A stretch of 55,926 nt of DNA from an uncultured SAR86 cluster bacterium (GTDB lineage: Bacteria; Pseudomonadota; Gammaproteobacteria; Magnimaribacterales; AG-339-G14): the NCBI GenBank assembly GCA_902514765.1, contig CABXSA010000004.1, forward strand, positions 1 through 55,926, given 5' to 3'. Under the pieces are notes generated by a model. That model had not been told where the DNA came from. It saw only the letters and a program-made list of their open reading frames with translations, and ran no database searches. Position 1 is the first letter of the stretch. Each line of letters begins with the position of its first letter. A program made the position numbers and the translations under genes. Below, piece by piece: positions 1 through 47,692 of this stretch.

Positions 1-6
1 AGTATT

Positions 7-2910
<2,904 letters not shown>

Positions 2911-2973
2911 AAATACTTTAAATTAATAAAGTTAAGTCTTTCGAATAATAAGCGCCAAAATTTGCCATTAGCA

Positions 2974-3057
2974 TTTTAAGATAATTATCTTAAAACTTGG
3001 TGCACTAATAATTGATAACATTAATTATTAGTGTCGTAACTAAATAAATTTAGTTAC
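2974..3057. repeat. Three adjacent inverted repeats in the 16S-23S spacer
   Basis: Perfect palindrome TTTTAAGATAATTATCTTAAAA (2974-2995); CACTAATAATT...AATTATTAGTG (3003-3033); GTAACTAAAT-AA-ATTTAGTTAC (3036-3057). Confidence 0.9.
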
Positions 3058-3071
3058 TGGATCAACAATAC

Positions 3072-3083
3072 TTTTAAAGAACA
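3072..3083 (-). promoter_or_regulatory. Spacer boxA antitermination site
   Basis: Minus strand TGTTCTTTAAAA, identical to the leader copy, preceded by a boxB-like hairpin (about 3088-3110). Confidence 0.85.
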
Positions 3084-3160
3084 CATCACTTATTTTCCTA
3101 TGAAAATAGTAAGACAAGTAATTCGAACGGACACTCACAATAAAAGTCGTGTAATTTGTT

Positions 3161-4693
<1,533 letters not shown>

Positions 4694-35185: not shown

Positions 35186-36244
35186 CTATTTTTTCCAATA
35201 GCCAGTTATGTGCATTTGTTCTTTTGCGACACCCTCATTTTTGAAGAATTTTCTAATTTTCATCATCTGTCTAGCCTCGCCTGCTCCAAAAATATAAAAA
35301 TCATTTTTTGGAAGCTCATAAACTTTCAAACTGTCTAATAATTTCTCTCCTTCGCCGGGCTCATCGCCTTCTCGATAAATCCAATTTTCTAAAATATTAT
35401 TTTCTCCTTTAGTTGGTATTTGGCAGCTTTCATCAATAACTTCATAAAAAGTTGTACATTTGGAAAAGTTTTTATTGTTTTCACTAATGACTTTCATTGC
35501 AGGTATCCCTGTTTCATCTGCTATTAAAATCAAATGACTAAATTTTTTTGATGGACTAAACATTGACCTTGGGCCCCACAGAATCGCCTGATCACCCGTC
35601 TTAGCTTTTTCAGCCCAATTGCCTAAATTTCCTGAATGACTGTGTAAGACAAACCACATTTTTATTTCATCTTCTCTAAAGTTTCTGATGGTGTAATAAG
35701 CACCAGCAGTGATTTTTATTTCGTCAGATATCTGTTTTCTATAATTTTCCATTGAGTAATCTCTATCTAAATTGGTCTTGTTCTTATCTAAAGGAACGAT
35801 AACAAATAAAAAATCATCACCATTTTGGGTTTCTAGTTTTGTGAAATCTCCTTTAAATACTATTTCTTTGATATTTTTGGAGATGATTTTTGTTTCACTA
35901 ACCTCAGAATAGAAAGATATCGAATGCAAAGAATTTTCAATATCTTTTTCAATATTTGTTTTTGGAAAATCAGACCCTAATCTTTCCCTCGCTTGGTAGA
36001 TGAGACCAATAAAAAAATTTTTTAACTCATCATTTGTGTTTGAATTTAAATCAAAATCTAAATCTAAATACCCTTCCACATTGTTGTTCATTATTTTTAG
36101 ATTTAATTGGTTTTTTTCAGAGACAATTATTTCTGCAGAAGAGTTCTGATTGTTTGATAAATAATCAGCTACCATTAGAACAGCGTCACTATGATTACTG
36201 TTATAGGTATCAATAAAGAGTGTTATTTCCTTAGAATCTTTCAT
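35186..36244 (-). CDS. Siderophore-interacting protein (ViuB/YqjH type) with N-terminal DUF2470-like domain
   Basis: YYTIR, FVLH, GPR, ADETGIPA, AGE and terminal GYWK; extra about 100-aa N-terminus containing YNSNHSDA. Confidence 0.82.
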   Translation of the reverse strand: MKDSKEITLFIDTYNSNHSDAVLMVADYLSNNQNSSAEIIVSEKNQLNLKIMNNNVEGYLDLDFDLNSNTNDELKNFFIGLIYQARERLGSDFPKTNIEKDIENSLHSISFYSEVSETKIISKNIKEIVFKGDFTKLETQNGDDFLFVIVPLDKNKTNLDRDYSMENYRKQISDEIKITAGAYYTIRNFREDEIKMWFVLHSHSGNLGNWAEKAKTGDQAILWGPRSMFSPSKKFSHLILIADETGIPAMKVISENNKNFSKCTTFYEVIDESCQIPTKGENNILENWIYREGDEPGEGEKLLDSLKVYELPKNDFYIFGAGEARQMMKIRKFFKNEGVAKEQMHITGYWKK

Positions 36245-36273
36245 CAGCAATTAAATAAAATTTATTGAAACAT

Positions 36274-36294
36274 AAATGATAATCATTATCATTT
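36274..36294. promoter_or_regulatory. Fur box shared by the divergent SIP and DUF6607-like genes
   Basis: Perfect 10-1-10 palindrome AAATGATAAT-C-ATTATCATTT; overlaps a plus-strand TTGAAA-16-TATCAT promoter. Confidence 0.93.
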
Positions 36295-40773: not shown

Positions 40774-41769
40774 TTATAGATTTTTTGCTATCTCTTTTGC
40801 GGCATAAGTTAAGATGCAATCCGCACCGGCTCGCTTAAATGAAAGAAGCGATTCAAACATTACGTCCTCGCTAAGCCAGTTTTTTTCAATTGCTGCTTTC
40901 AACATAGCGTATTCACCGCTTACTTGATAAACGAAGGTTGGCATTTGAAATTTTTCTTTAACTGCCTTTACTACGTCAAGATAAGGCATGCCTGGTTTTA
41001 CCATAACAATGTCAGCGCCCTCATTTATATCTAGGGCAACCTCATGGAGCGCTTCATCAATGTTCGCAACAGCCATTTGATAAGTATCTTTTGTTTTATT
41101 TCCAAAAAATTTTGCAGATTCTACTGCATCCTTAAAAGGACCATAGAACTTTGAACTGTATTTTGCTGAGTAAGCCAAAATCATAGTATTTTTGAAACCC
41201 TTTTCTTCCAAGGCTTTCCTTATGACTCCAATTCTGCCATCCATCATATCGGATGGAGCAATGATGTCTGTTCCTGCTTGAGCAAGCTTCAATGCCTGAT
41301 CTTCTAGAACTTTAAGTGTCTCATCATTATCAACATCGCCATCTGAATTTAATATGCCATCATGACCATGGGTTGTATAAGGATCTAAAGCTACATCAGC
41401 AATAACTAGAATCTCCGGAAAATTTTGTTTTATTTTCCTTATGACATTATTAAGAAAATTATTTTCATTTATTGCCTCGGAACCTTTCTCGTCTTTCTTG
41501 TCTTCATCAATTACAGGAAAAATAGCTGTCGCCTTGATACCTAATTTCACAAGCTCTTCAATTTCTATGAGAATACTTTTTTCTGAGTGTTTAAAAATTC
41601 CAAATAGAGATCCTATTTCTTCTTTTTCTTTAATGGATTCCTTAACGAAAATAGGTTGAATTAAATCATTAATGGATAATGTACTTTCTGCTACAAGATC
41701 TCTAATAGGTTTATTCGATCGTAGTCTTCTCAGCCTTGAGAGGGGATATTTTCTTTTAAAATTTGCCAT
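40774..41769 (-). CDS. hemB: Porphobilinogen synthase (Cys-free, Zn-independent type)
   Basis: DVALDPYTTHGHDG, PSDMMDG, VMVKPG, YQVSGEY motifs. Confidence 0.97.
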   Translation of the reverse strand: MANFKRKYPLSRLRRLRSNKPIRDLVAESTLSINDLIQPIFVKESIKEKEEIGSLFGIFKHSEKSILIEIEELVKLGIKATAIFPVIDEDKKDEKGSEAINENNFLNNVIRKIKQNFPEILVIADVALDPYTTHGHDGILNSDGDVDNDETLKVLEDQALKLAQAGTDIIAPSDMMDGRIGVIRKALEEKGFKNTMILAYSAKYSSKFYGPFKDAVESAKFFGNKTKDTYQMAVANIDEALHEVALDINEGADIVMVKPGMPYLDVVKAVKEKFQMPTFVYQVSGEYAMLKAAIEKNWLSEDVMFESLLSFKRAGADCILTYAAKEIAKNL

Positions 41770-41791: not shown

Positions 41792-43291
41792 TTACTTTGC
41801 TTCGTTTACTTTTTCCAGCCAGTCTTCATAGTTTAAAAAAGGCTTTATCTTGTTAGGATATAGTTTATTCAATTCATCAAAAGTTTTACCCAAACCACAA
41901 GAGTGTTCTGCATTTTTAATGCTTGGAAATCTTTTCAAAGCTTCTTTAAAAGAACTGATAGACATCCAATAGAAATGAGAATATTTAGATAAATCTTCTA
42001 TATCTTTTTCAGGAACTAATTCATATGTTGCAATAAGTTTTTTATCTTTGGATTCTGAAGCAATATGGGAAACCAAAAACCAATTTACCTTCTTCAGGAT
42101 CGATTCAGGTTTAGATTGTTCTTCTCCTAAACCATCTGAGGTACCATTCACCCATATTCCTTTCCTAGCCAATTTAAACCAATTTTCTATACCACTTGTC
42201 CAAATTACATTAGACAAATCAATTGCTGTGCCAGTTTCGATTGAGCTTGCTCTGGATATGTACAAACCAGCATTTTTAATGTCCTCTATTTCTTTTGTTC
42301 CATCATTGATCATTGATCGAAAGAATAATTTGAAATCTTTTTTTAATTTTGGGTAGAAATCTTTTATGGGATTTTCAAATTTAGAAAATTCTTTCTTGAA
42401 AGGTAAAAAAGACCTTTTATCAATGAGTTCATTATCTGGCGTTAAGCCTTTCTCAGTAATGATCTTTCCGAGGGAATGATTTTCTATACTGACGCCAATT
42501 TTTTGATGACAGCCTCCACCATATTTTTTAAGTTTCTCTCTCTCCTCTTCAACATTTTTAAAAACATCTAAGTCATTGATTTCATTAAGTAATTCAATAA
42601 CTCTTTTATTGCCTGACTTTACTTCAATGGCCAATGCCCCTTGACCAGGTGCACAGGGATTTTGCGAACAGGGAATTACCATCCATAAAAATTTCTCTAA
42701 GTTTTTTTTAAATGAATCTAACTCACCGGTAATTCCTACTTTAGGAAATAGCAATCTATCAATAGCAGCTTTTGCTATTACCAAACCATCAGCGTTTGAA
42801 TCTTCTAGTTTCTGAACTCTGGTTAGAATATTTCCTCTTACATCGCTAAAACTCAGAGAGTCTACTTCGAAAGGAATTGCTTTTAATAGAAACTTCGAAA
42901 GATTTTCTTGTCTTCGTGGAGAAGAAGTAAATATTTCTAATTTTTTCTTTTTGAAGGAACCCTTCTTAAAAATCAAAACATCTCTTAAGTCTGCTCTTTC
43001 TATAGTTGCGGCAAGTTCTGTCCCTTCTTCAAGATCAACTGGAAGGTCTTTCCAAGAGTGAACTGCAATATCTGCCTTTTCAGTTAATAATTCTCCTCGG
43101 ATATCTGAGGTAAAAACTCCTATCTCAGGCATTTTGTGAAGGGGTGTAGTCAAATCTATATCGCCTGAAGTATCTTTAGTTTTAAAATTTATTTTTATTT
43201 CAGGAAATTTATTTTTAATTACCTCAGAGACTTCTTGTGCTTGTATTTTTGCCAATACACTTTTTCTTGAAATAATAGTTAACTTATCCAT
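41792..43291 (-). CDS. hemC: Hydroxymethylbilane synthase fused to a HemD-like domain
   Basis: AVHSWKDLP, RGNILTR, PGQGALA, GGGC motifs, then about 200 extra aa with HemD-like motifs; AAGGA RBS before ATG 43291. Confidence 0.9.
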   Translation of the reverse strand: MDKLTIISRKSVLAKIQAQEVSEVIKNKFPEIKINFKTKDTSGDIDLTTPLHKMPEIGVFTSDIRGELLTEKADIAVHSWKDLPVDLEEGTELAATIERADLRDVLIFKKGSFKKKKLEIFTSSPRRQENLSKFLLKAIPFEVDSLSFSDVRGNILTRVQKLEDSNADGLVIAKAAIDRLLFPKVGITGELDSFKKNLEKFLWMVIPCSQNPCAPGQGALAIEVKSGNKRVIELLNEINDLDVFKNVEEEREKLKKYGGGCHQKIGVSIENHSLGKIITEKGLTPDNELIDKRSFLPFKKEFSKFENPIKDFYPKLKKDFKLFFRSMINDGTKEIEDIKNAGLYISRASSIETGTAIDLSNVIWTSGIENWFKLARKGIWVNGTSDGLGEEQSKPESILKKVNWFLVSHIASESKDKKLIATYELVPEKDIEDLSKYSHFYWMSISSFKEALKRFPSIKNAEHSCGLGKTFDELNKLYPNKIKPFLNYEDWLEKVNEAK

Positions 43292-43401
43292 TATAACCAA
43301 TCCTTATAAACAACTATATTATTATAATACTACTAACTTTTGATATTTAGTTTGCATCTTTTTAAGTCTATAGTAATGGTCAATTCCTTGTTGGAGATGA
43401 A

Positions 43402-44652
43402 ATGAATTATAAAAAATATTTTTCAGACGAATTGACTTCCTTGAAATCTCAAGGTTTATACAGAAAATTTAGAGAAATTAACAGAGATAAAAAGCACTTT
43501 CCAAGAGCTACAGAAAGGTTTGAAGGTATCGAAAGGCCCGTTGAAGTTTGGTGTAGTAACGATTATCTCAATTTAAGTCAGCATCCAGAAGTAATCAAGA
43601 AGTCTGTTGAAGTTATTGAAGAATTAGGAACTGGCTCTGGAGGTACTAGAAATATTTCAGGAACTTCCTCATATCATGCAGAACTTGAAAAGGAGTTAGC
43701 AAGTTTGCATAACAAACAATCCAGCCTTATATTTCCCTCCGCCTATACTGCAAATCAATCAACTTTGTGGACTTTGTGTAAAAAATTAGAGGGCATAGAA
43801 GTGTTCTCAGATGAGCTCAACCATGCATCTATGATTCAAGGAATAAAAAATGCAAATGTCCCATGTCATATATTTCGCCATAATGATGTAGGTCATTTAA
43901 GAAAGCTCTTAAATACGTCTAATGCGAGTGTTCCAAAACTAATAGTTCTTGAATCACTTTACTCTATGGAAGGCCTTAGGTCGCCGCTTAAACAAATTGT
44001 TTCTCTAGCAAAAGAATTTAATGCTTTGACTTATCTCGACGAGGTTCACTCAGTAGGACTTTATGGTACAGAAGGTAGAGGTATAGCAAATGAACAAAAT
44101 ATTTCTGATGAAATTGACATCATAAATGGAACTCTATCAAAAGCTTTTGGGCAAATGGGTGGTTATATTGCTGCTAGCTCTGACATCATTGATTTCATTA
44201 GAAGCTTTGCACCCGGTTTTATTTTTACATCTTCTGCCAATCCAAGTATTGCAGCTGCTTCAATCAAGGCCATAGAAATAGCTAAGAAATCTGAACACTT
44301 AAGAGAAGAAATTAGAAAAAATTCTGATCTCATAAGGGCTGGATTGAGAGATTTAGAGATACCGCATTTAAATAATGATAGTCACATTATTCCTATACAT
44401 CTTGAAGATCCAAGACTCTGCAAAGAGGCTGCTAATCTTCTTATCGAAGATCACGGAATTTATATTCAGCCTGTCTTCTACCCTACAGTCCCCAAGGGCG
44501 ATGAAAGATTCAGAGTTACAATCACTCCTAAGCATCAATCAAAAGATATCAAGAGATTTCTATCTTCATTGAACCAAGTTTGGGATAAGTTAAGTTTAAG
44601 AAGAGAAAGTTTCTCTTATAATCAAAAGTCTCAAGTAGCTAAAATTTACTAG
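43402..44652 (+). CDS. hemA: 5-aminolevulinate synthase (C4/Shemin pathway)
   Basis: VWCSNDYL, GSGGTRNISGT, SDELNHASMIQGI, DEVHSVGLYG, GTLSKAFG, RSFAPGFIFT are ALAS-type motifs; adjacent to the hem operon. Confidence 0.93.
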   Translation: MNYKKYFSDELTSLKSQGLYRKFREINRDKKHFPRATERFEGIERPVEVWCSNDYLNLSQHPEVIKKSVEVIEELGTGSGGTRNISGTSSYHAELEKELASLHNKQSSLIFPSAYTANQSTLWTLCKKLEGIEVFSDELNHASMIQGIKNANVPCHIFRHNDVGHLRKLLNTSNASVPKLIVLESLYSMEGLRSPLKQIVSLAKEFNALTYLDEVHSVGLYGTEGRGIANEQNISDEIDIINGTLSKAFGQMGGYIAASSDIIDFIRSFAPGFIFTSSANPSIAAASIKAIEIAKKSEHLREEIRKNSDLIRAGLRDLEIPHLNNDSHIIPIHLEDPRLCKEAANLLIEDHGIYIQPVFYPTVPKGDERFRVTITPKHQSKDIKRFLSSLNQVWDKLSLRRESFSYNQKSQVAKIY

Positions 44653-44654
44653 TT

Positions 44655-44812
44655 TAAAAGTCGAAATCCCGCTGTTAAGCGGGATTTCTTCTCTCCAAAA
44701 ACTTTAATGAAATATTCAGGGGGAGATCTTTAAGAGATATGCCATGAGATGAAATGAAAAGGCTACTCTAAAAATCTTCATACTTTCATTATCGTTTTTA
44801 TCCTCTCCTAAA
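44655..44812 (-). ncRNA. Candidate 3'UTR-derived small RNA
   Basis: About 160-nt trailer in a genome with minimal spacers; contains UUCAUUUCAUCUC, complementary to the hemA RBS/start; ends in a terminator. Hypothesis only. Confidence 0.5.
44663..44688. terminator. Bidirectional intrinsic terminator between hemA and the TonB receptor
   Basis: GAAATCCCGCT-GTTA-AGCGGGATTTC 11-bp stem with T-rich sequence on both sides. Confidence 0.85.
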
Positions 44813-44814
44813 AT

Positions 44815-46920
44815 TTAAAAACTTCTAGAGTAGGAAATTCTTACATTTTGCGATTCTCCTACGGATACCTGATGATTTGAGTGAGAATGCGGATAATAAG
44901 TTTCATCACCTAAGTTCTCGATATTAATTCTCACAGCATCGTTTTCATTAGGAGTAATGCTCATAGACATGTCGAATCTTGTGTAGTCAGGTAGAAAAGG
45001 ACCACTAGCAGCATTTATAACAGACTCGTCTTGGTATGTTGCACCCAAACTTATTGAAAACATGTCGTTTGCTTGGTGGGTATACCATAATGAATAAGTC
45101 AGCTCAGGAACTTCTTTGGCTTTATCTCCAGTAGTATTTCTTACTGCATCAACTGATGCTAAACCAAATCGGATAGCATTTCTTTCATCAATGTCACCGT
45201 TTAATGTAATCTCAAAACCATCTATAGCTAGAGCTCTTGTCTCAGTTCCGCCAGTTCCATCCTCAGCTGCCTTGGTTTGTTCCATATCGAAATAACTTAC
45301 TGCTAGAGAAAGTCCAGAATCGGTATCGTATTTGAAACCTACTTCAGTATTTTCGAAAACGTCTGGATCAAATCTTTCGCCGCTAGTTCCAAATGTTTTA
45401 TATTGCTCACCAGAGCGAGGAATAAAACTTTCACTGTAACTTAAGTAAAGAGACATATTTTCTTGAGGCTTGTAAATGATTCCAAAACGAGGTGATATTG
45501 TTGAATCGTCTCTGCTTTTGGTAACGTCATTGCCGTTTACGGCTCCCATTCCTTCATTTGCACCAGATGTAGGTGTTGTTATTCCGTATTGTTTAACACT
45601 AATACTAACGTCGTCATATCTTGCTCCAAGGACCATTTTCCATTGATCAGCAAGATCTATGTTTCCTGTTAGATAAAAAGAAGTTACTTCAATATCTGTA
45701 TCTGATTTATTATTCAAATCAGAAGTGTAATCAACATAAGTTACATTACCTGCAGAATTTACATTGAAGTTCAAAGGCTTAGGTGTAGAGCCTGTTAAAG
45801 CAAATGTCTCGTTATCATCTTTGGTTGTTGACCAAAAAGTGTTGTAACGATAATTACTGTTCTCAGTTTCTAGAATTTCTAAACCTACAGCTAAAGTACC
45901 TCTTTCAAACTCGTTAACGTTACTTAAAGCTATAGCCAAAGTTTCTCTTAAGGTCATATCAAGATAACCGTCAAGAGTTACTACGCCTGCTGCGTAGTCA
46001 GAGGCATATAGATTTTTGTACATTTTATTAAAATCATTGGCAACAACACTCAAGTTAACTTTTCCGCTATCCGAGTAGTTATGGACAAGATTACCTTTAA
46101 GAATGTTTGCTTCAAGGGTAGTACTATTCAAGTCCAAAGTACCAATAACAAATCCATTAAGAGAGTCAATTGGGAAATTAGTACCTCCAGTTACATCGTC
46201 AGTTGGAATACCTCTATCAATAAATCTTTCATGATCTGCATATTCATAAGATAAATCTATTGTAGTTTCAGGATTTACCTGAAATCTCATTGTCGGATTT
46301 ACACCTACTCTGTCTCCATGGAACATATCTCTATGGTTGGCTAAAGAATCGGCATGGAAATTTAAACGGAAAGATATGGTATCTGAAACTTCTATATTCC
46401 CATCTAAAGCTACATCAGCACCTCCAAAAGAGTCTGCCCCTGTGTCTAATCTTCCAAAAGTTTCACCAATCTCTGCAGTTTTAGATACTCTGTTTATCAG
46501 ACCACCTGTTCCACCTCGACCAAATAGAAGTGCATTAGCACCTTTAATGATCTCAACTTGTTCAACATTATATAAAGATCTGTAATATTGGACATCGTCT
46601 CTAACTCCGTCTTGGTAAAAGTCTGCGGTAGACCTTACGCCCCTAAAAACAACCGCGTCTCTGTGTCCTTCTCCTTGAGAAGTATTCACGCCCGGCGTGT
46701 ATCTAATCAAATCGCCTATTTGTCTAAAGCCTTGGTTTCGAATGTCTTCATCAGTAATTACTGAAACTGACTGAGGAACGTCTAAAACCGGCATAGGAGG
46801 TTTAAGCGAATTAACTTGATCTTTAAAAAGAACCTTACCTTTTACTTCAAGTTCTTCATCCTGTGCAATGATTACAAAGCTAGTGATCACTAGAGCAATC
46901 ATATAAATAATTTTTTTCAT
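44815..46920 (-). CDS. TonB-dependent siderophore receptor (Fiu/PiuA-like)
   Basis: Signal peptide, plug motifs DVPQSVSVI, GEGHRD...FRG, EQVEIIKGANALLFGRG; C-terminal Phe; Fur boxes upstream. Confidence 0.92.
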   Translation of the reverse strand: MKKIIYMIALVITSFVIIAQDEELEVKGKVLFKDQVNSLKPPMPVLDVPQSVSVITDEDIRNQGFRQIGDLIRYTPGVNTSQGEGHRDAVVFRGVRSTADFYQDGVRDDVQYYRSLYNVEQVEIIKGANALLFGRGGTGGLINRVSKTAEIGETFGRLDTGADSFGGADVALDGNIEVSDTISFRLNFHADSLANHRDMFHGDRVGVNPTMRFQVNPETTIDLSYEYADHERFIDRGIPTDDVTGGTNFPIDSLNGFVIGTLDLNSTTLEANILKGNLVHNYSDSGKVNLSVVANDFNKMYKNLYASDYAAGVVTLDGYLDMTLRETLAIALSNVNEFERGTLAVGLEILETENSNYRYNTFWSTTKDDNETFALTGSTPKPLNFNVNSAGNVTYVDYTSDLNNKSDTDIEVTSFYLTGNIDLADQWKMVLGARYDDVSISVKQYGITTPTSGANEGMGAVNGNDVTKSRDDSTISPRFGIIYKPQENMSLYLSYSESFIPRSGEQYKTFGTSGERFDPDVFENTEVGFKYDTDSGLSLAVSYFDMEQTKAAEDGTGGTETRALAIDGFEITLNGDIDERNAIRFGLASVDAVRNTTGDKAKEVPELTYSLWYTHQANDMFSISLGATYQDESVINAASGPFLPDYTRFDMSMSITPNENDAVRINIENLGDETYYPHSHSNHQVSVGESQNVRISYSRSF

Positions 46921-46956
46921 AACGAAATGTTCTCCATCTAATAAGAATTACTCGCG

Positions 46957-47003
46957 AATGATAATGATTATCATTAGCCTTGTCAATGAGAATGATTATT
47001 ATT
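46957..47003 (-). promoter_or_regulatory. Tandem Fur boxes over the TonB receptor promoter
   Basis: AATGATAAT-G-ATTATCATT (46957-46975) and AATGAGAAT-G-ATTATTATT (46985-47003) overlap minus-strand TTGACA (46981-46986)-17 nt-TATCAT (46958-46963). Confidence 0.92.
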
Positions 47004-47026
47004 TGTATTCAGTTATATCTTAAGAA

Positions 47027-47692
47027 TTAAATAGTTAAATAATTAACTTTGCCTTCATTTAGTTCGATGATCTTATCGCACATTTCCTTTGCTTCATCTA
47101 GTTCATGAGTGACTAAGATACTTGAGGTATTTGTTTTTTTGAATAATTCCTTGCTTTCTTTTCTTAATTCTTCTCTAAGATCTTTATCTAGAGAACTGAA
47201 CGGCTCATCTAATAAAACAAGATCAGGTCCTGGAGCAATGGCTCTGGCAATTGCTACTCTTTGTTGCTGCCCTCCTGACAAAGAGTTTGGATAAGAGCTA
47301 GCAAATTGTTCTGCTTTTAAAAGTTTTAAATAACTTAGGGCTTTTGCATTTTTATCTTTATTTGATCCTTTTAAACCAAACTTAACATTCTCAAGGGCAG
47401 TTAAGTGAGGAAATAATACTTTTTCTTGAACTACCAATCCTATTCCTCTTTTGTTGGGAGGAACAAAAATATTGGTTGAACTCAAAACTGAGCCAAAATA
47501 GAAAATTTTTCCGGTTTTTGGTCTTTCTAAGCCTACAATTAATCTCAATAGAGAACTTTTGCCAATTCCAGAGGGCCCTAAAATTCCTAAAATTTCTCCT
47601 TCATTAAGACTAAAAGATATATTAGAGAAGATTTCCTTATCTTTCGTGTATTCAAAAGATAAAGAATTGACAGATAATATTTCTCTTTTCAT
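47027..47692 (-). CDS. Fe3+ ABC transporter ATP-binding subunit (FutC/FbpC-like, short)
   Basis: GPSGIGKS, LSGGQQQR, LLDEPF motifs; coupled to the permease. Confidence 0.88.
   Translation of the reverse strand: MKREILSVNSLSFEYTKDKEIFSNISFSLNEGEILGILGPSGIGKSSLLRLIVGLERPKTGKIFYFGSVLSSTNIFVPPNKRGIGLVVQEKVLFPHLTALENVKFGLKGSNKDKNAKALSYLKLLKAEQFASSYPNSLSGGQQQRVAIARAIAPGPDLVLLDEPFSSLDKDLREELRKESKELFKKTNTSSILVTHELDEAKEMCDKIIELNEGKVNYLTI

Follow-up and report, generated by a model that had tools for sequence, protein, structure and literature searches.

A conserved hairpin in the trailer of a TonB-dependent receptor gene as a candidate regulatory RNA for hemA in an uncultured marine SAR86 genus

Introduction

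Why should the nucleotides at which the translation of one gene begins be repeated in the trailer of its convergent neighbour? This question is raised by contig CABXSA010000004.1 from an uncultured SAR86 cluster bacterium, of which a stretch of 55,926 nt, referred to below as the window, was analysed as a whole. Here hemA, the gene for 5-aminolevulinate synthase (ALA synthase), converges with a gene for a TonB-dependent receptor, and the 162 nt between the two coding regions hold a second copy of a 13-nt word that spans the start of hemA. The initial annotation had proposed that this spacer, as the 3' untranslated region (3'UTR) of the receptor messenger, gives rise to a small RNA (sRNA) antisense to the ribosome-binding site (RBS) and start codon of hemA. 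We find that the spacer contains an element which is real and under strong selection, and we consider it fairly probable, judging from sequence and predicted fold, that this element acts from the 3'UTR, independently of a chaperone, as a riboregulator that blocks the translation of hemA when iron is low.

Over much of the surface ocean iron is limiting, and the lineage that carries the element has genomes of about 1.2 Mb with few regulators. Several classes of bacterial RNA are relevant to such a proposal. RyhB and PrrF are Hfq-dependent RNAs encoded by stand-alone genes, and acnB is a RyhB target in E. coli. CpxQ, SdhX, DapZ and GlnZ are sRNAs derived from 3'UTRs. The plasmid antisense RNAs of the CopA and RNAI type present a long perfect complementarity in a hairpin loop and need no chaperone. 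Below, we describe the repeat and the element that holds it, follow both through the genus and consider which reading of the locus accounts best for what is found.

Results

The 13-nt repeat and the trailer element

On the plus strand, positions 43394-43406 and 44746-44758 both read GAGATGAAATGAA, and since their flanks differ the repeat is exactly 13 nt long. The first copy spans the GGAG Shine-Dalgarno (SD) sequence of hemA, a five-base spacer, the ATG at 43402 and the next two bases. The second copy, read on the minus strand, lies in a hairpin loop; as the initial annotation had pointed out, it is perfectly complementary to the hemA initiation region over 13 bases. Both strands of the assembly to which the window belongs (G000; 902,813 bases, 68% complete) were searched, and GAGATGAAATGAA occurs only at these two places. 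When the 162-nt spacer was imitated by first-order Markov sequences, a 13-mer shared with hemA -25 to +10 in either orientation arose in 103 of 300,000 simulated spacers, which gives p ~3e-4 for this one pair, the free choice among spacers not being allowed for. The parts of the proposed RNA and its target are as follows.

43394-43406, plus strand: proposed target site, GAGAUGAAAUGAA in the mRNA, comprising the hemA SD, the spacer, the ATG and two further bases
44778-44814, minus strand: linker from the receptor stop to hairpin 1, within which the 5' end of any short RNA would fall
44777-44724, minus strand: hairpin 1, which consists of a lower stem of 11 pairs, then a small internal loop, a GCC/GGC clamp and an apical loop of 17 nt
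44744-44760, minus strand: apical loop UUUUCAUUUCAUCUCAU; the seed UUCAUUUCAUCUC is at 44758-44746 (loop bases 3-15)
44718-44725, minus strand: CUCCCCCU, a C/U-rich single strand that follows hairpin 1; the centroid fold leaves it unpaired, and it is nearly invariant
44688-44663, minus strand: terminator-like hairpin GAAAUCCCGC-UUAACA-GCGGGAUUUC, beside the hemA stop and common to hemA and the receptor
44662-44655, minus strand: U-rich tail GACUUUUA, where the receptor transcript and the RNA are proposed to end

The trailer had been described as about 160 nt long in a genome whose spacers are mostly below 50 nt, and this description holds. At 162 nt it is among the five longest spacers of the window in a rough map of open reading frames (ORFs), where the gaps have a median of 2 nt and 32 of 45 are shorter than 50 nt. 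The 135 nt from 44789 to 44655 on the minus strand fold with a dG of -36.7 kcal/mol (z = -3.7), and none of 200 shuffled sequences folded as well. The three AUCUC motifs reported for this strand are present, two of them in the hairpin stem. Predicted opening energies are 0.02 kcal/mol for the seed and about 4.4 kcal/mol for the hemA site, and the duplex between them gives -16.3 to -18.4 kcal/mol. The stretch CUCCCCCU is a possible second, anti-SD-like pairing site. A search for partners of a second seed was discarded: the sole near-match to AGGGGGAGATCT elsewhere in the genome (contig C28) falls within a SecF gene.

The earlier claim that the trailer ends in an intrinsic terminator holds, with a qualification. 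The hairpin at 44688-44663 with its U-rich tail is conserved and covarying and is the sole hairpin with a U-tract in the spacer, whereas a strict consensus scan flagged it on neither strand; we assign it as a terminator because of its fold, conservation and covariation. Since this hairpin and its tail adjoin the hemA stop, the second copy of the repeat lies beyond the hemA terminator, as had been stated.

Distribution and conservation of the element

A covariance model of the element (R1), built from 13 copies, found one full-length copy per genome in 14 of the 17 genomes of the genus (G000 and the others, G001-G016), in every case within the interval bounded by the stop codons of hemA and the receptor gene. 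Across the genus the spacer block aligns at 83% mean identity. Neither the element nor a hemA match was found in G015 (59% complete). The element is missing from G008 (locus L010) and G009 (L007), whose 45-50-nt spacers contain the terminator only; in carriers the element is flanked by two TCTCTCC words, and it seems to have been lost by a deletion from one of them to the other. Strong matches to the model occur in the genus only, and none of the 151 genomes sampled from the order carries the element outside it; five weak matches elsewhere in the order (E 4.8e-5 to 4.3e-3) were rejected as plain terminator hairpins without the loop word.

A pattern search in which only the stem flanks were fixed and the loop was left free returned 46 matches, 33 of them true copies from two genome contigs (metagenome-assembled genomes) and 31 metagenome contigs. 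The remainder were discarded: five of the seven matches in genome contigs are unrelated GC-rich stretches in Kiloniellales, Vicinamibacterales and Acidobacteriota, and eight of the 39 in metagenomes are also unrelated. None of these 33 free-loop copies shows a change in the loop core CAUUUCAUCUC, and the core CATTTCATCTC is likewise unchanged in every one of them. Over an alignment of 44 sequences, 39 of them distinct, variation is found in the internal loop, in the linkers and in the loop of the terminator. The initial annotation had proposed to look for a seed that is conserved and accompanied by compensatory changes. The seed is indeed the most conserved part of the element; changes on both sides were not seen, and the seed never varies. 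Conservation of the seed above that of the rest of the UTR is as in the class of 3'UTR-derived sRNAs.

Eleven of the 14 carrier genomes, and most metagenome copies, have an extra hairpin of about 80 nt that follows the receptor stop and precedes hairpin 1 (for example L033, L036 and L037); it is not in the window at 44778-44814. Its sequence differs widely by clade while a long stem is kept, which amounts to strong covariation, and its apical loop is often CCAGGAAGAU. Most copies fold better on the minus strand, some on the plus strand.

The sister genus (L017, L018, L020) keeps the synteny of hemA and a convergent receptor, the latter 37% identical, around an unrelated, internally conserved spacer of 127 nt with a hairpin of its own. 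No 13-nt repeat is found in this spacer, and the longest words that it shares with the hemA leader measure only 9-10 nt and are not the same from genome to genome. Neither was any significant pairing between spacer and hemA leader detected in the sister genus, where RNAduplex on the whole spacer did no better than shuffles; this form of the test is uninformative for long RNAs because G000 also does no better than shuffles. As the sister genus has the synteny without the repeat, hemA was in place before the repeat arose.

The proposed hemA target site across relatives

Homologues of hemA were taken from 40 relatives. Forty loci that have both the element and a hemA start give 33 distinct combinations of loop and site, all of them complementary, with duplex energies of -14.7 to -21.5 kcal/mol (32 of the 33 at or below -17.5). 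Positions -6 to -2 and 0 to +4 of the site are invariant in all 33 combinations. The changes that do occur within the 13 nt are an A-to-G at -7 (8/33), an A-to-G at -1 (3/33) and a terminal G-to-A (1/33). Both kinds of A-to-G keep the pairing as G-U with an unchanged loop, the G-to-A at the duplex end costs one pair, and no transversion is found in the site among these combinations. Start regions are not generally frozen in the genus, since the nth leader is unalignable and the receptor SD-ATG spacer differs between genomes. G008, which is without the element, is also without the hemA SD and spacer (ttttaaaacgaaATG). The pattern at the hemA site, as read from these alignments, is what the pairing model predicts and holds nothing that contradicts it, although it does not amount to compensatory proof.

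In one relative (G003, contig C2; L028) the hemA match is split into two pieces that overlap, an indication of a frameshift or of an error in the assembly.

Coding strand of the element

Hairpin 1 is paired in 95.8% of cells over the 39 distinct sequences, and its variable bases lie in the internal loop. The terminator hairpin shows two covarying pairs, and its one-sided changes are G-U only on the minus strand. Counted over the stems, the minus strand has 49 G-U cells and no A-C cells (an A-C cell being a G-U pair of the plus strand), a count in which 38 of the 49 come from one invariant U-G pair and about six positions are independent. This imbalance favours the minus strand as the one that is transcribed. 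After the element, no plus-strand hairpin or U-tract is present in G000, G007 and G012. Owing to the G-U bias and to this lack of a plus-strand end in the three genomes, we read the element as a minus-strand RNA.

The receptor promoter and proposed co-transcription

The control region of the receptor gene contains the following features.

46986-46958, minus strand: receptor promoter TTGACA-17-TATCAT, 11/12 match
46978-46960, minus strand: Fur box 1, GCTAATGATAATCATTATC, 18/19 (1 mismatch), overlapping the promoter
47004-46986, minus strand: Fur box 2, weaker (about 14/19), over the -35

The two Fur boxes that had been placed over this promoter, scored against a 19-position consensus, are real, and the same layout recurs in all eight relatives examined, which include both genomes without the element. 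A Fur gene is present in 15 of the 17 genomes of the genus. The boxes would govern the RNA itself only on the supposition that it is transcribed from the receptor promoter. In all 14 carrier genomes the element lies on the parent strand between the receptor stop and the terminator. No conserved sigma-70-like -10/-35 pair upstream of hairpin 1 appears in the alignments or in a consensus scan. The extra hairpin of some 80 nt has no U-tract on the minus strand, and the receptor transcript should therefore run through it. Because there is no other terminator and no conserved promoter before hairpin 1, we infer co-transcription with the receptor, with or without processing, as the simplest reading.

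RNA-library data were available for relatives as unstranded Logan contigs from three metatranscriptome runs of one study, which held 0.09, 0.07 and 0.03 of the words of the stretch; such contigs give no strand, ends or level, and the receptor parts that they leave uncovered carry no meaning. One contig of 710 nt, which begins at the terminator, runs through the element and then matches again within the receptor coding sequence (CDS). Another of 301 nt, with a depth of 126, covers 44497-44782 and ends some 8 nt beyond this range. RNA libraries thus contain the element, and in them it can be joined to the receptor.

Genome-wide target scan

The initial annotation had suggested a genome-wide target search, in the expectation of iron-related targets; here the loop was tested against every 28-nt segment of the G000 genome. 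With the element's own antisense excluded, hemA is second of all sites and first among real start codons, and katG, acnB, ETF-QO and nth are among those that come next. The next matches at start sites comprise a TorF-like porin, RNase E, acnB (TIGR00117), nth, SDR, a TauD-like dioxygenase, PBP2, katG and ETF-QO. The katG site AUGAGGUGAAAU, with 12 bp including one G-U, is kept in 15/15 genomes; that of acnB persists in 11 of 16 genomes, including both that are without the element, and that of ETF-QO, which has a 4Fe-4S domain, in nine of 13. Genes related to iron or heme make up 6 of the 13 best start-site genes compared with 1 of 20 random genes (p = 0.008), or 5 of 12 when hemA is left out (p = 0.018), and p becomes 0.06-0.10 once the iron-uptake genes of the random set are included in the count. 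This enrichment among the predicted targets is suggestive only, because the categories were chosen post hoc, two of the 13 best genes are unannotated and the loop complement resembles an SD-AUG region.

Some of the homologues concerned are irregular in individual genomes: nth has about ten stops in G008 (contig C1; L144) and ETF-QO carries stops in the same genome (contig C2; L193), as possible pseudogenes or errors, and in G003 (contig C1; L194, L196) ETF-QO is in two pieces, one of them with stops, again a possible pseudogene or error.

Cellular context and relation to catalogued RNA families

Hfq (PF17209) was found in none of the 17 genomes of the genus, six of which are at least 90% complete, while the control genomes were positive; ProQ (PF04352) was found in none of five. 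A long, perfect seed that is presented in a loop fits pairing of the chaperone-free kind. No glutamyl-tRNA reductase scored above the cut-off in five genomes of the genus, so ALA synthase is apparently the only entry to heme synthesis, which would make it a sensible single control point. RNase E is present in the genus (L105).

The initial annotation had not recognised the RNA as RyhB (RF00057) or PrrF (RF00444), and the element indeed belongs to neither, nor to any other Rfam family: a scan of the whole window at gathering thresholds gave the large-subunit (LSU) and small-subunit (SSU) rRNAs only. A permissive scan of 43250-47150 with Rfam 15 (E up to 10) returned sub-threshold noise, the best match over the element reaching 25 bits with a gathering threshold of 54.

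Genomic neighbourhood

The genes on either side of the spacer, and the heme genes next to them, are arranged as follows.

40774-41769, minus strand: hemB
41792-43300, minus strand: hemC, an ORF of 502 aa
43402-44652, plus strand: hemA, ALA synthase of 416 aa, with a TIGR01821 equivalog domain at 540 bits (cut-off 338.55)
44815-46920, minus strand: TonB-dependent receptor of 701 aa with plug and beta-barrel domains and the C-terminus RSF*, convergent with hemA; its stop codon is at 44815-44817

The receptor scores 208.7 bits against the TonB-dependent siderophore receptor subfamily, slightly below the cut-off of 223.5, and an ABC ATPase and a two-domain permease are encoded upstream of it on the same strand. 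The cluster of hemB, hemC and hemA adjoins iron-uptake genes. The hemC model covers residues 7-275 only, and the C-terminal ~225 aa form a candidate fused second domain, possibly uroporphyrinogen-III synthase. Elsewhere in the window, a Fur-box-like site with three mismatches in 19 positions (36272-36290, plus strand) is located just upstream of a gene for a siderophore-interacting protein of the SIP/FAD_binding_9 type (35186-36244, minus strand). An rRNA operon occupies 6-4693 on the minus strand, with the SSU at 3160-4693, the LSU at 6-2910 and a spacer of about 249 nt between them; ARAGORN found no tRNA gene in this spacer or elsewhere in the window.

Discussion

Proposed mechanism

The data above establish the anatomy of the element, its conservation, its complementarity to hemA, the accessibility of its loop and the presence of the Fur boxes. 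From them we infer the strand of transcription, co-transcription or processing, the response to iron and the repression of hemA. According to the model that we prefer, the 162-nt receptor trailer would encode, on the minus strand, a regulatory RNA some 115-135 nt long, with its 3' end at the terminator that serves hemA as well. When iron drops, Fur would leave the receptor promoter; the receptor mRNA would then be made and would carry the trailer, either whole or as a processed 3' fragment. The loop would pair with the hemA initiation region and keep the 30S subunit off, so that the only entry to tetrapyrrole synthesis would be throttled during iron shortage. Pairing would take place without the need for Hfq or ProQ, which the genus apparently lacks. 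Further targets are possible, namely katG and, less surely, acnB and ETF-QO. Taken in its widest form, the proposal describes a chaperone-free 3'UTR riboregulator that wires iron-uptake transcription to the shutdown of ALA synthase, probably also of katG, acnB and ETF-QO, and that was born by copying the hemA SD-AUG word into the trailer of the convergent neighbour; we put this composite forward tentatively, as something short of an even chance.

Several observations weigh against the model. None of the 14 pairs of hairpin 1 has changed on both sides and the seed never varies, so that neither the fold of hairpin 1 nor the pairing has compensatory proof. G009 keeps the hemA SD and spacer although it has lost the element, and translation alone could hold the conserved SD, spacer and ATG of hemA in place. 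The 13-bp helix would form within a closed loop of 17 nt, which requires the 3-bp clamp to open. For a discrete short RNA no conserved promoter and no defined processing site were found, and the Fur gene was not found in G000 itself (68% complete). The deep RNA-library contig (depth 126) extends 155 nt into hemA; DNA carry-over is possible for it, and the contigs are unstranded. As to targets, the best non-self site of the scan (C8:22739, -20.4 kcal/mol) falls in the 3' part of the coding sequence of an upstream gene, lacks conservation and was rejected, and the nth site is present in only one of 14 genomes, G000. Moreover, the loop complement is close to an ideal initiation region (SD-spacer-AUG), so some predicted targets are expected anyway. 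Finally, a minus-strand ORF of 20-25 aa that starts with ATG is intact in the same frame in 22 of the 39 distinct copies.

Alternative explanations

Two of the alternatives retain an RNA function for the element. The same antisense regulator of hemA might be transcribed from a promoter of its own, in the spacer or in the receptor 3' end, and so be uncoupled from Fur and iron. The large covarying hairpin between receptor stop and core in 11 of the 14 carriers could insulate both transcripts, the deep RNA-library contig comes to an end close to the base of the hairpin, some 8 nt upstream of 44782, and weak -10-like words (GATAAT in G000) are present upstream of hairpin 1. However, the region upstream of hairpin 1 is poorly conserved and contains no conserved -10/-35, the consensus scan was negative, the extra hairpin has no minus-strand U-tract with which to terminate the receptor transcript, and the 710-nt contig runs from the terminator into the receptor CDS; we regard an independent promoter as quite unlikely. 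Alternatively, the element might serve in cis alone, in the stability, 3'-end formation or processing of the receptor mRNA, its match to hemA being left over from an old local duplication. Such a role would agree with its constant place in the receptor trailer, with the shared terminator, with the lack of any covariation that ties hairpin 1 to a role in trans and with the retained hemA site of G009, which has no element. Stability hairpins, on the other hand, need no invariant 17-nt loop, and here the loop is the part most conserved; it also matches the SD/AUG of the neighbouring gene uniquely in the genome, and this match is kept throughout the genus while other starts diverge. A purely cis-acting element is therefore an unlikely explanation in our view, although one to keep in mind.

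The remaining alternatives abandon a minus-strand RNA as the functional product. If the feature acted on the plus strand or as DNA, it could be a repeated word bound by a protein, or it could mimic an RBS in a transcript that reads through from hemA. In favour of such a role, the two copies have the same orientation on the hemA strand, the plus strand likewise has a stable fold (dG -34.4 kcal/mol, z = -3.7), the extra hairpin folds better there in some relatives, and the deep RNA contig links the hemA 3' end to the element. Against this stand the G-U pairs of the minus strand, which would be A-C mismatches on the other (49 and 0 cells), the missing plus-strand hairpin and U-tract after the element in G000, G007 and G012, and a candidate plus-strand promoter region that is not conserved, which together leave a plus-strand or DNA-level role very unlikely. 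Still less probable is a minus-strand gene for a small protein of about 20-21 aa (MKIFRVAFSFHLMAYLLKISP in G000), even though the ORF noted above has its stop (TGA, TAA or TAG) at the same place in most copies. In 17 of the 39 copies there is no in-frame ATG in an alignment that starts only about 12-15 nt upstream of hairpin 1, a U-run of varying length (three, four or five U) puts three lineages out of frame, variation affects the first and second positions of codons (V/D/E/A and Y/D/N/M/K/R), at bases that coincide with the internal loop of the RNA, and no clear SD precedes the ORF. Owing to the frameshifts, the missing ATGs and the variation at codon positions 1 and 2, we do not consider the ORF to be what the element mainly serves for. 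The initial annotation itself had offered, as alternatives, chance and a repeat left behind when hemA was inserted, which would make the second copy a neutral remnant of the kind that target-site duplication produces. In favour of this, 13-mers recur often in AT-rich DNA, there are many spacers to choose from, and the two copies flank hemA. Yet the pair has p ~3e-4, the 13-mer is unique in the genome and both copies are held across 40 loci. An artefact of near-identical genomes is countered by the hemA identities of 88-97% and by the divergent nth leaders. With the synteny of the sister genus lacking the repeat, and the repeat held where other starts drift, both insertion and chance are disfavoured, to the point of being hardly credible.

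Relation to known systems

For a 3'UTR riboregulator of hemA as preferred here, the closest functional precedent, by analogy, is IsrR of S. aureus. According to PMC12607789, IsrR is Fur-controlled, binds the RBS of hemA (GtrR), lowers heme and also targets katA mRNA. The likeness lies in the link to iron and Fur, in the RBS of the first committed enzyme of heme synthesis and in a catalase mRNA as target, with hemA and katG the predicted counterparts here. IsrR differs in that it has a gene to itself, under a Fur-controlled promoter of its own, in that it belongs to a Firmicute, and in acting on a hemA that encodes glutamyl-tRNA reductase. The RNA proposed here would instead lie within the 3'UTR of an uptake gene and target 5-aminolevulinate synthase; it has no sequence relation to IsrR. 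RyhB and PrrF resemble it in the route from Fur derepression to an RNA that pairs at the initiation regions of mRNAs for iron-using proteins. Unlike these RNAs, the element has no covariance-model match to either, comes from a genus in which no Hfq was found and has a hairpin-loop seed with 13 perfect pairs. CopA and RNAI are true cis-antisense RNAs encoded opposite their targets, whereas here the RNA would be encoded 1.35 kb from its site, downstream of hemA, by way of a duplicated word.

In architecture, the element belongs with the 3'UTR-derived sRNAs. Like CpxQ, SdhX, DapZ and GlnZ, it lies between the parent stop and the terminator, uses the terminator of its parent and has a conserved seed, and it would in this way signal to other mRNAs how active the parent promoter is; these four differ in being Hfq-dependent and enterobacterial, with mapped ends. 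GlnZ is mentioned in PMC13501541. Within the literature covered, which was partial, no TonB receptor driven from a Fur box was found as the parent of an sRNA that targets heme synthesis, and no iron-sparing RNA from the 3'UTR of such a receptor gene, nor was any paper found on sRNAs of this marine group.

Biological implications

If the preferred model is true, an abundant, uncultured and streamlined marine genus would have an iron-sparing response that works without a separate sRNA gene, Hfq or ProQ. This would be a minimal solution and, because it is confined to one genus, an evolutionarily young one, and it would illustrate one route to the birth of a 3'UTR regulator. The analysis also draws attention to a gammaproteobacterial genus in which ALA synthase is apparently the only way into heme synthesis. 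The proposed RNA and its target form a defined pair with 13 perfect base pairs, which is testable in E. coli without culturing the host, and the ratio of trailer RNA to hemA mRNA may serve as a marker of iron stress in stranded metatranscriptomes from the ocean.

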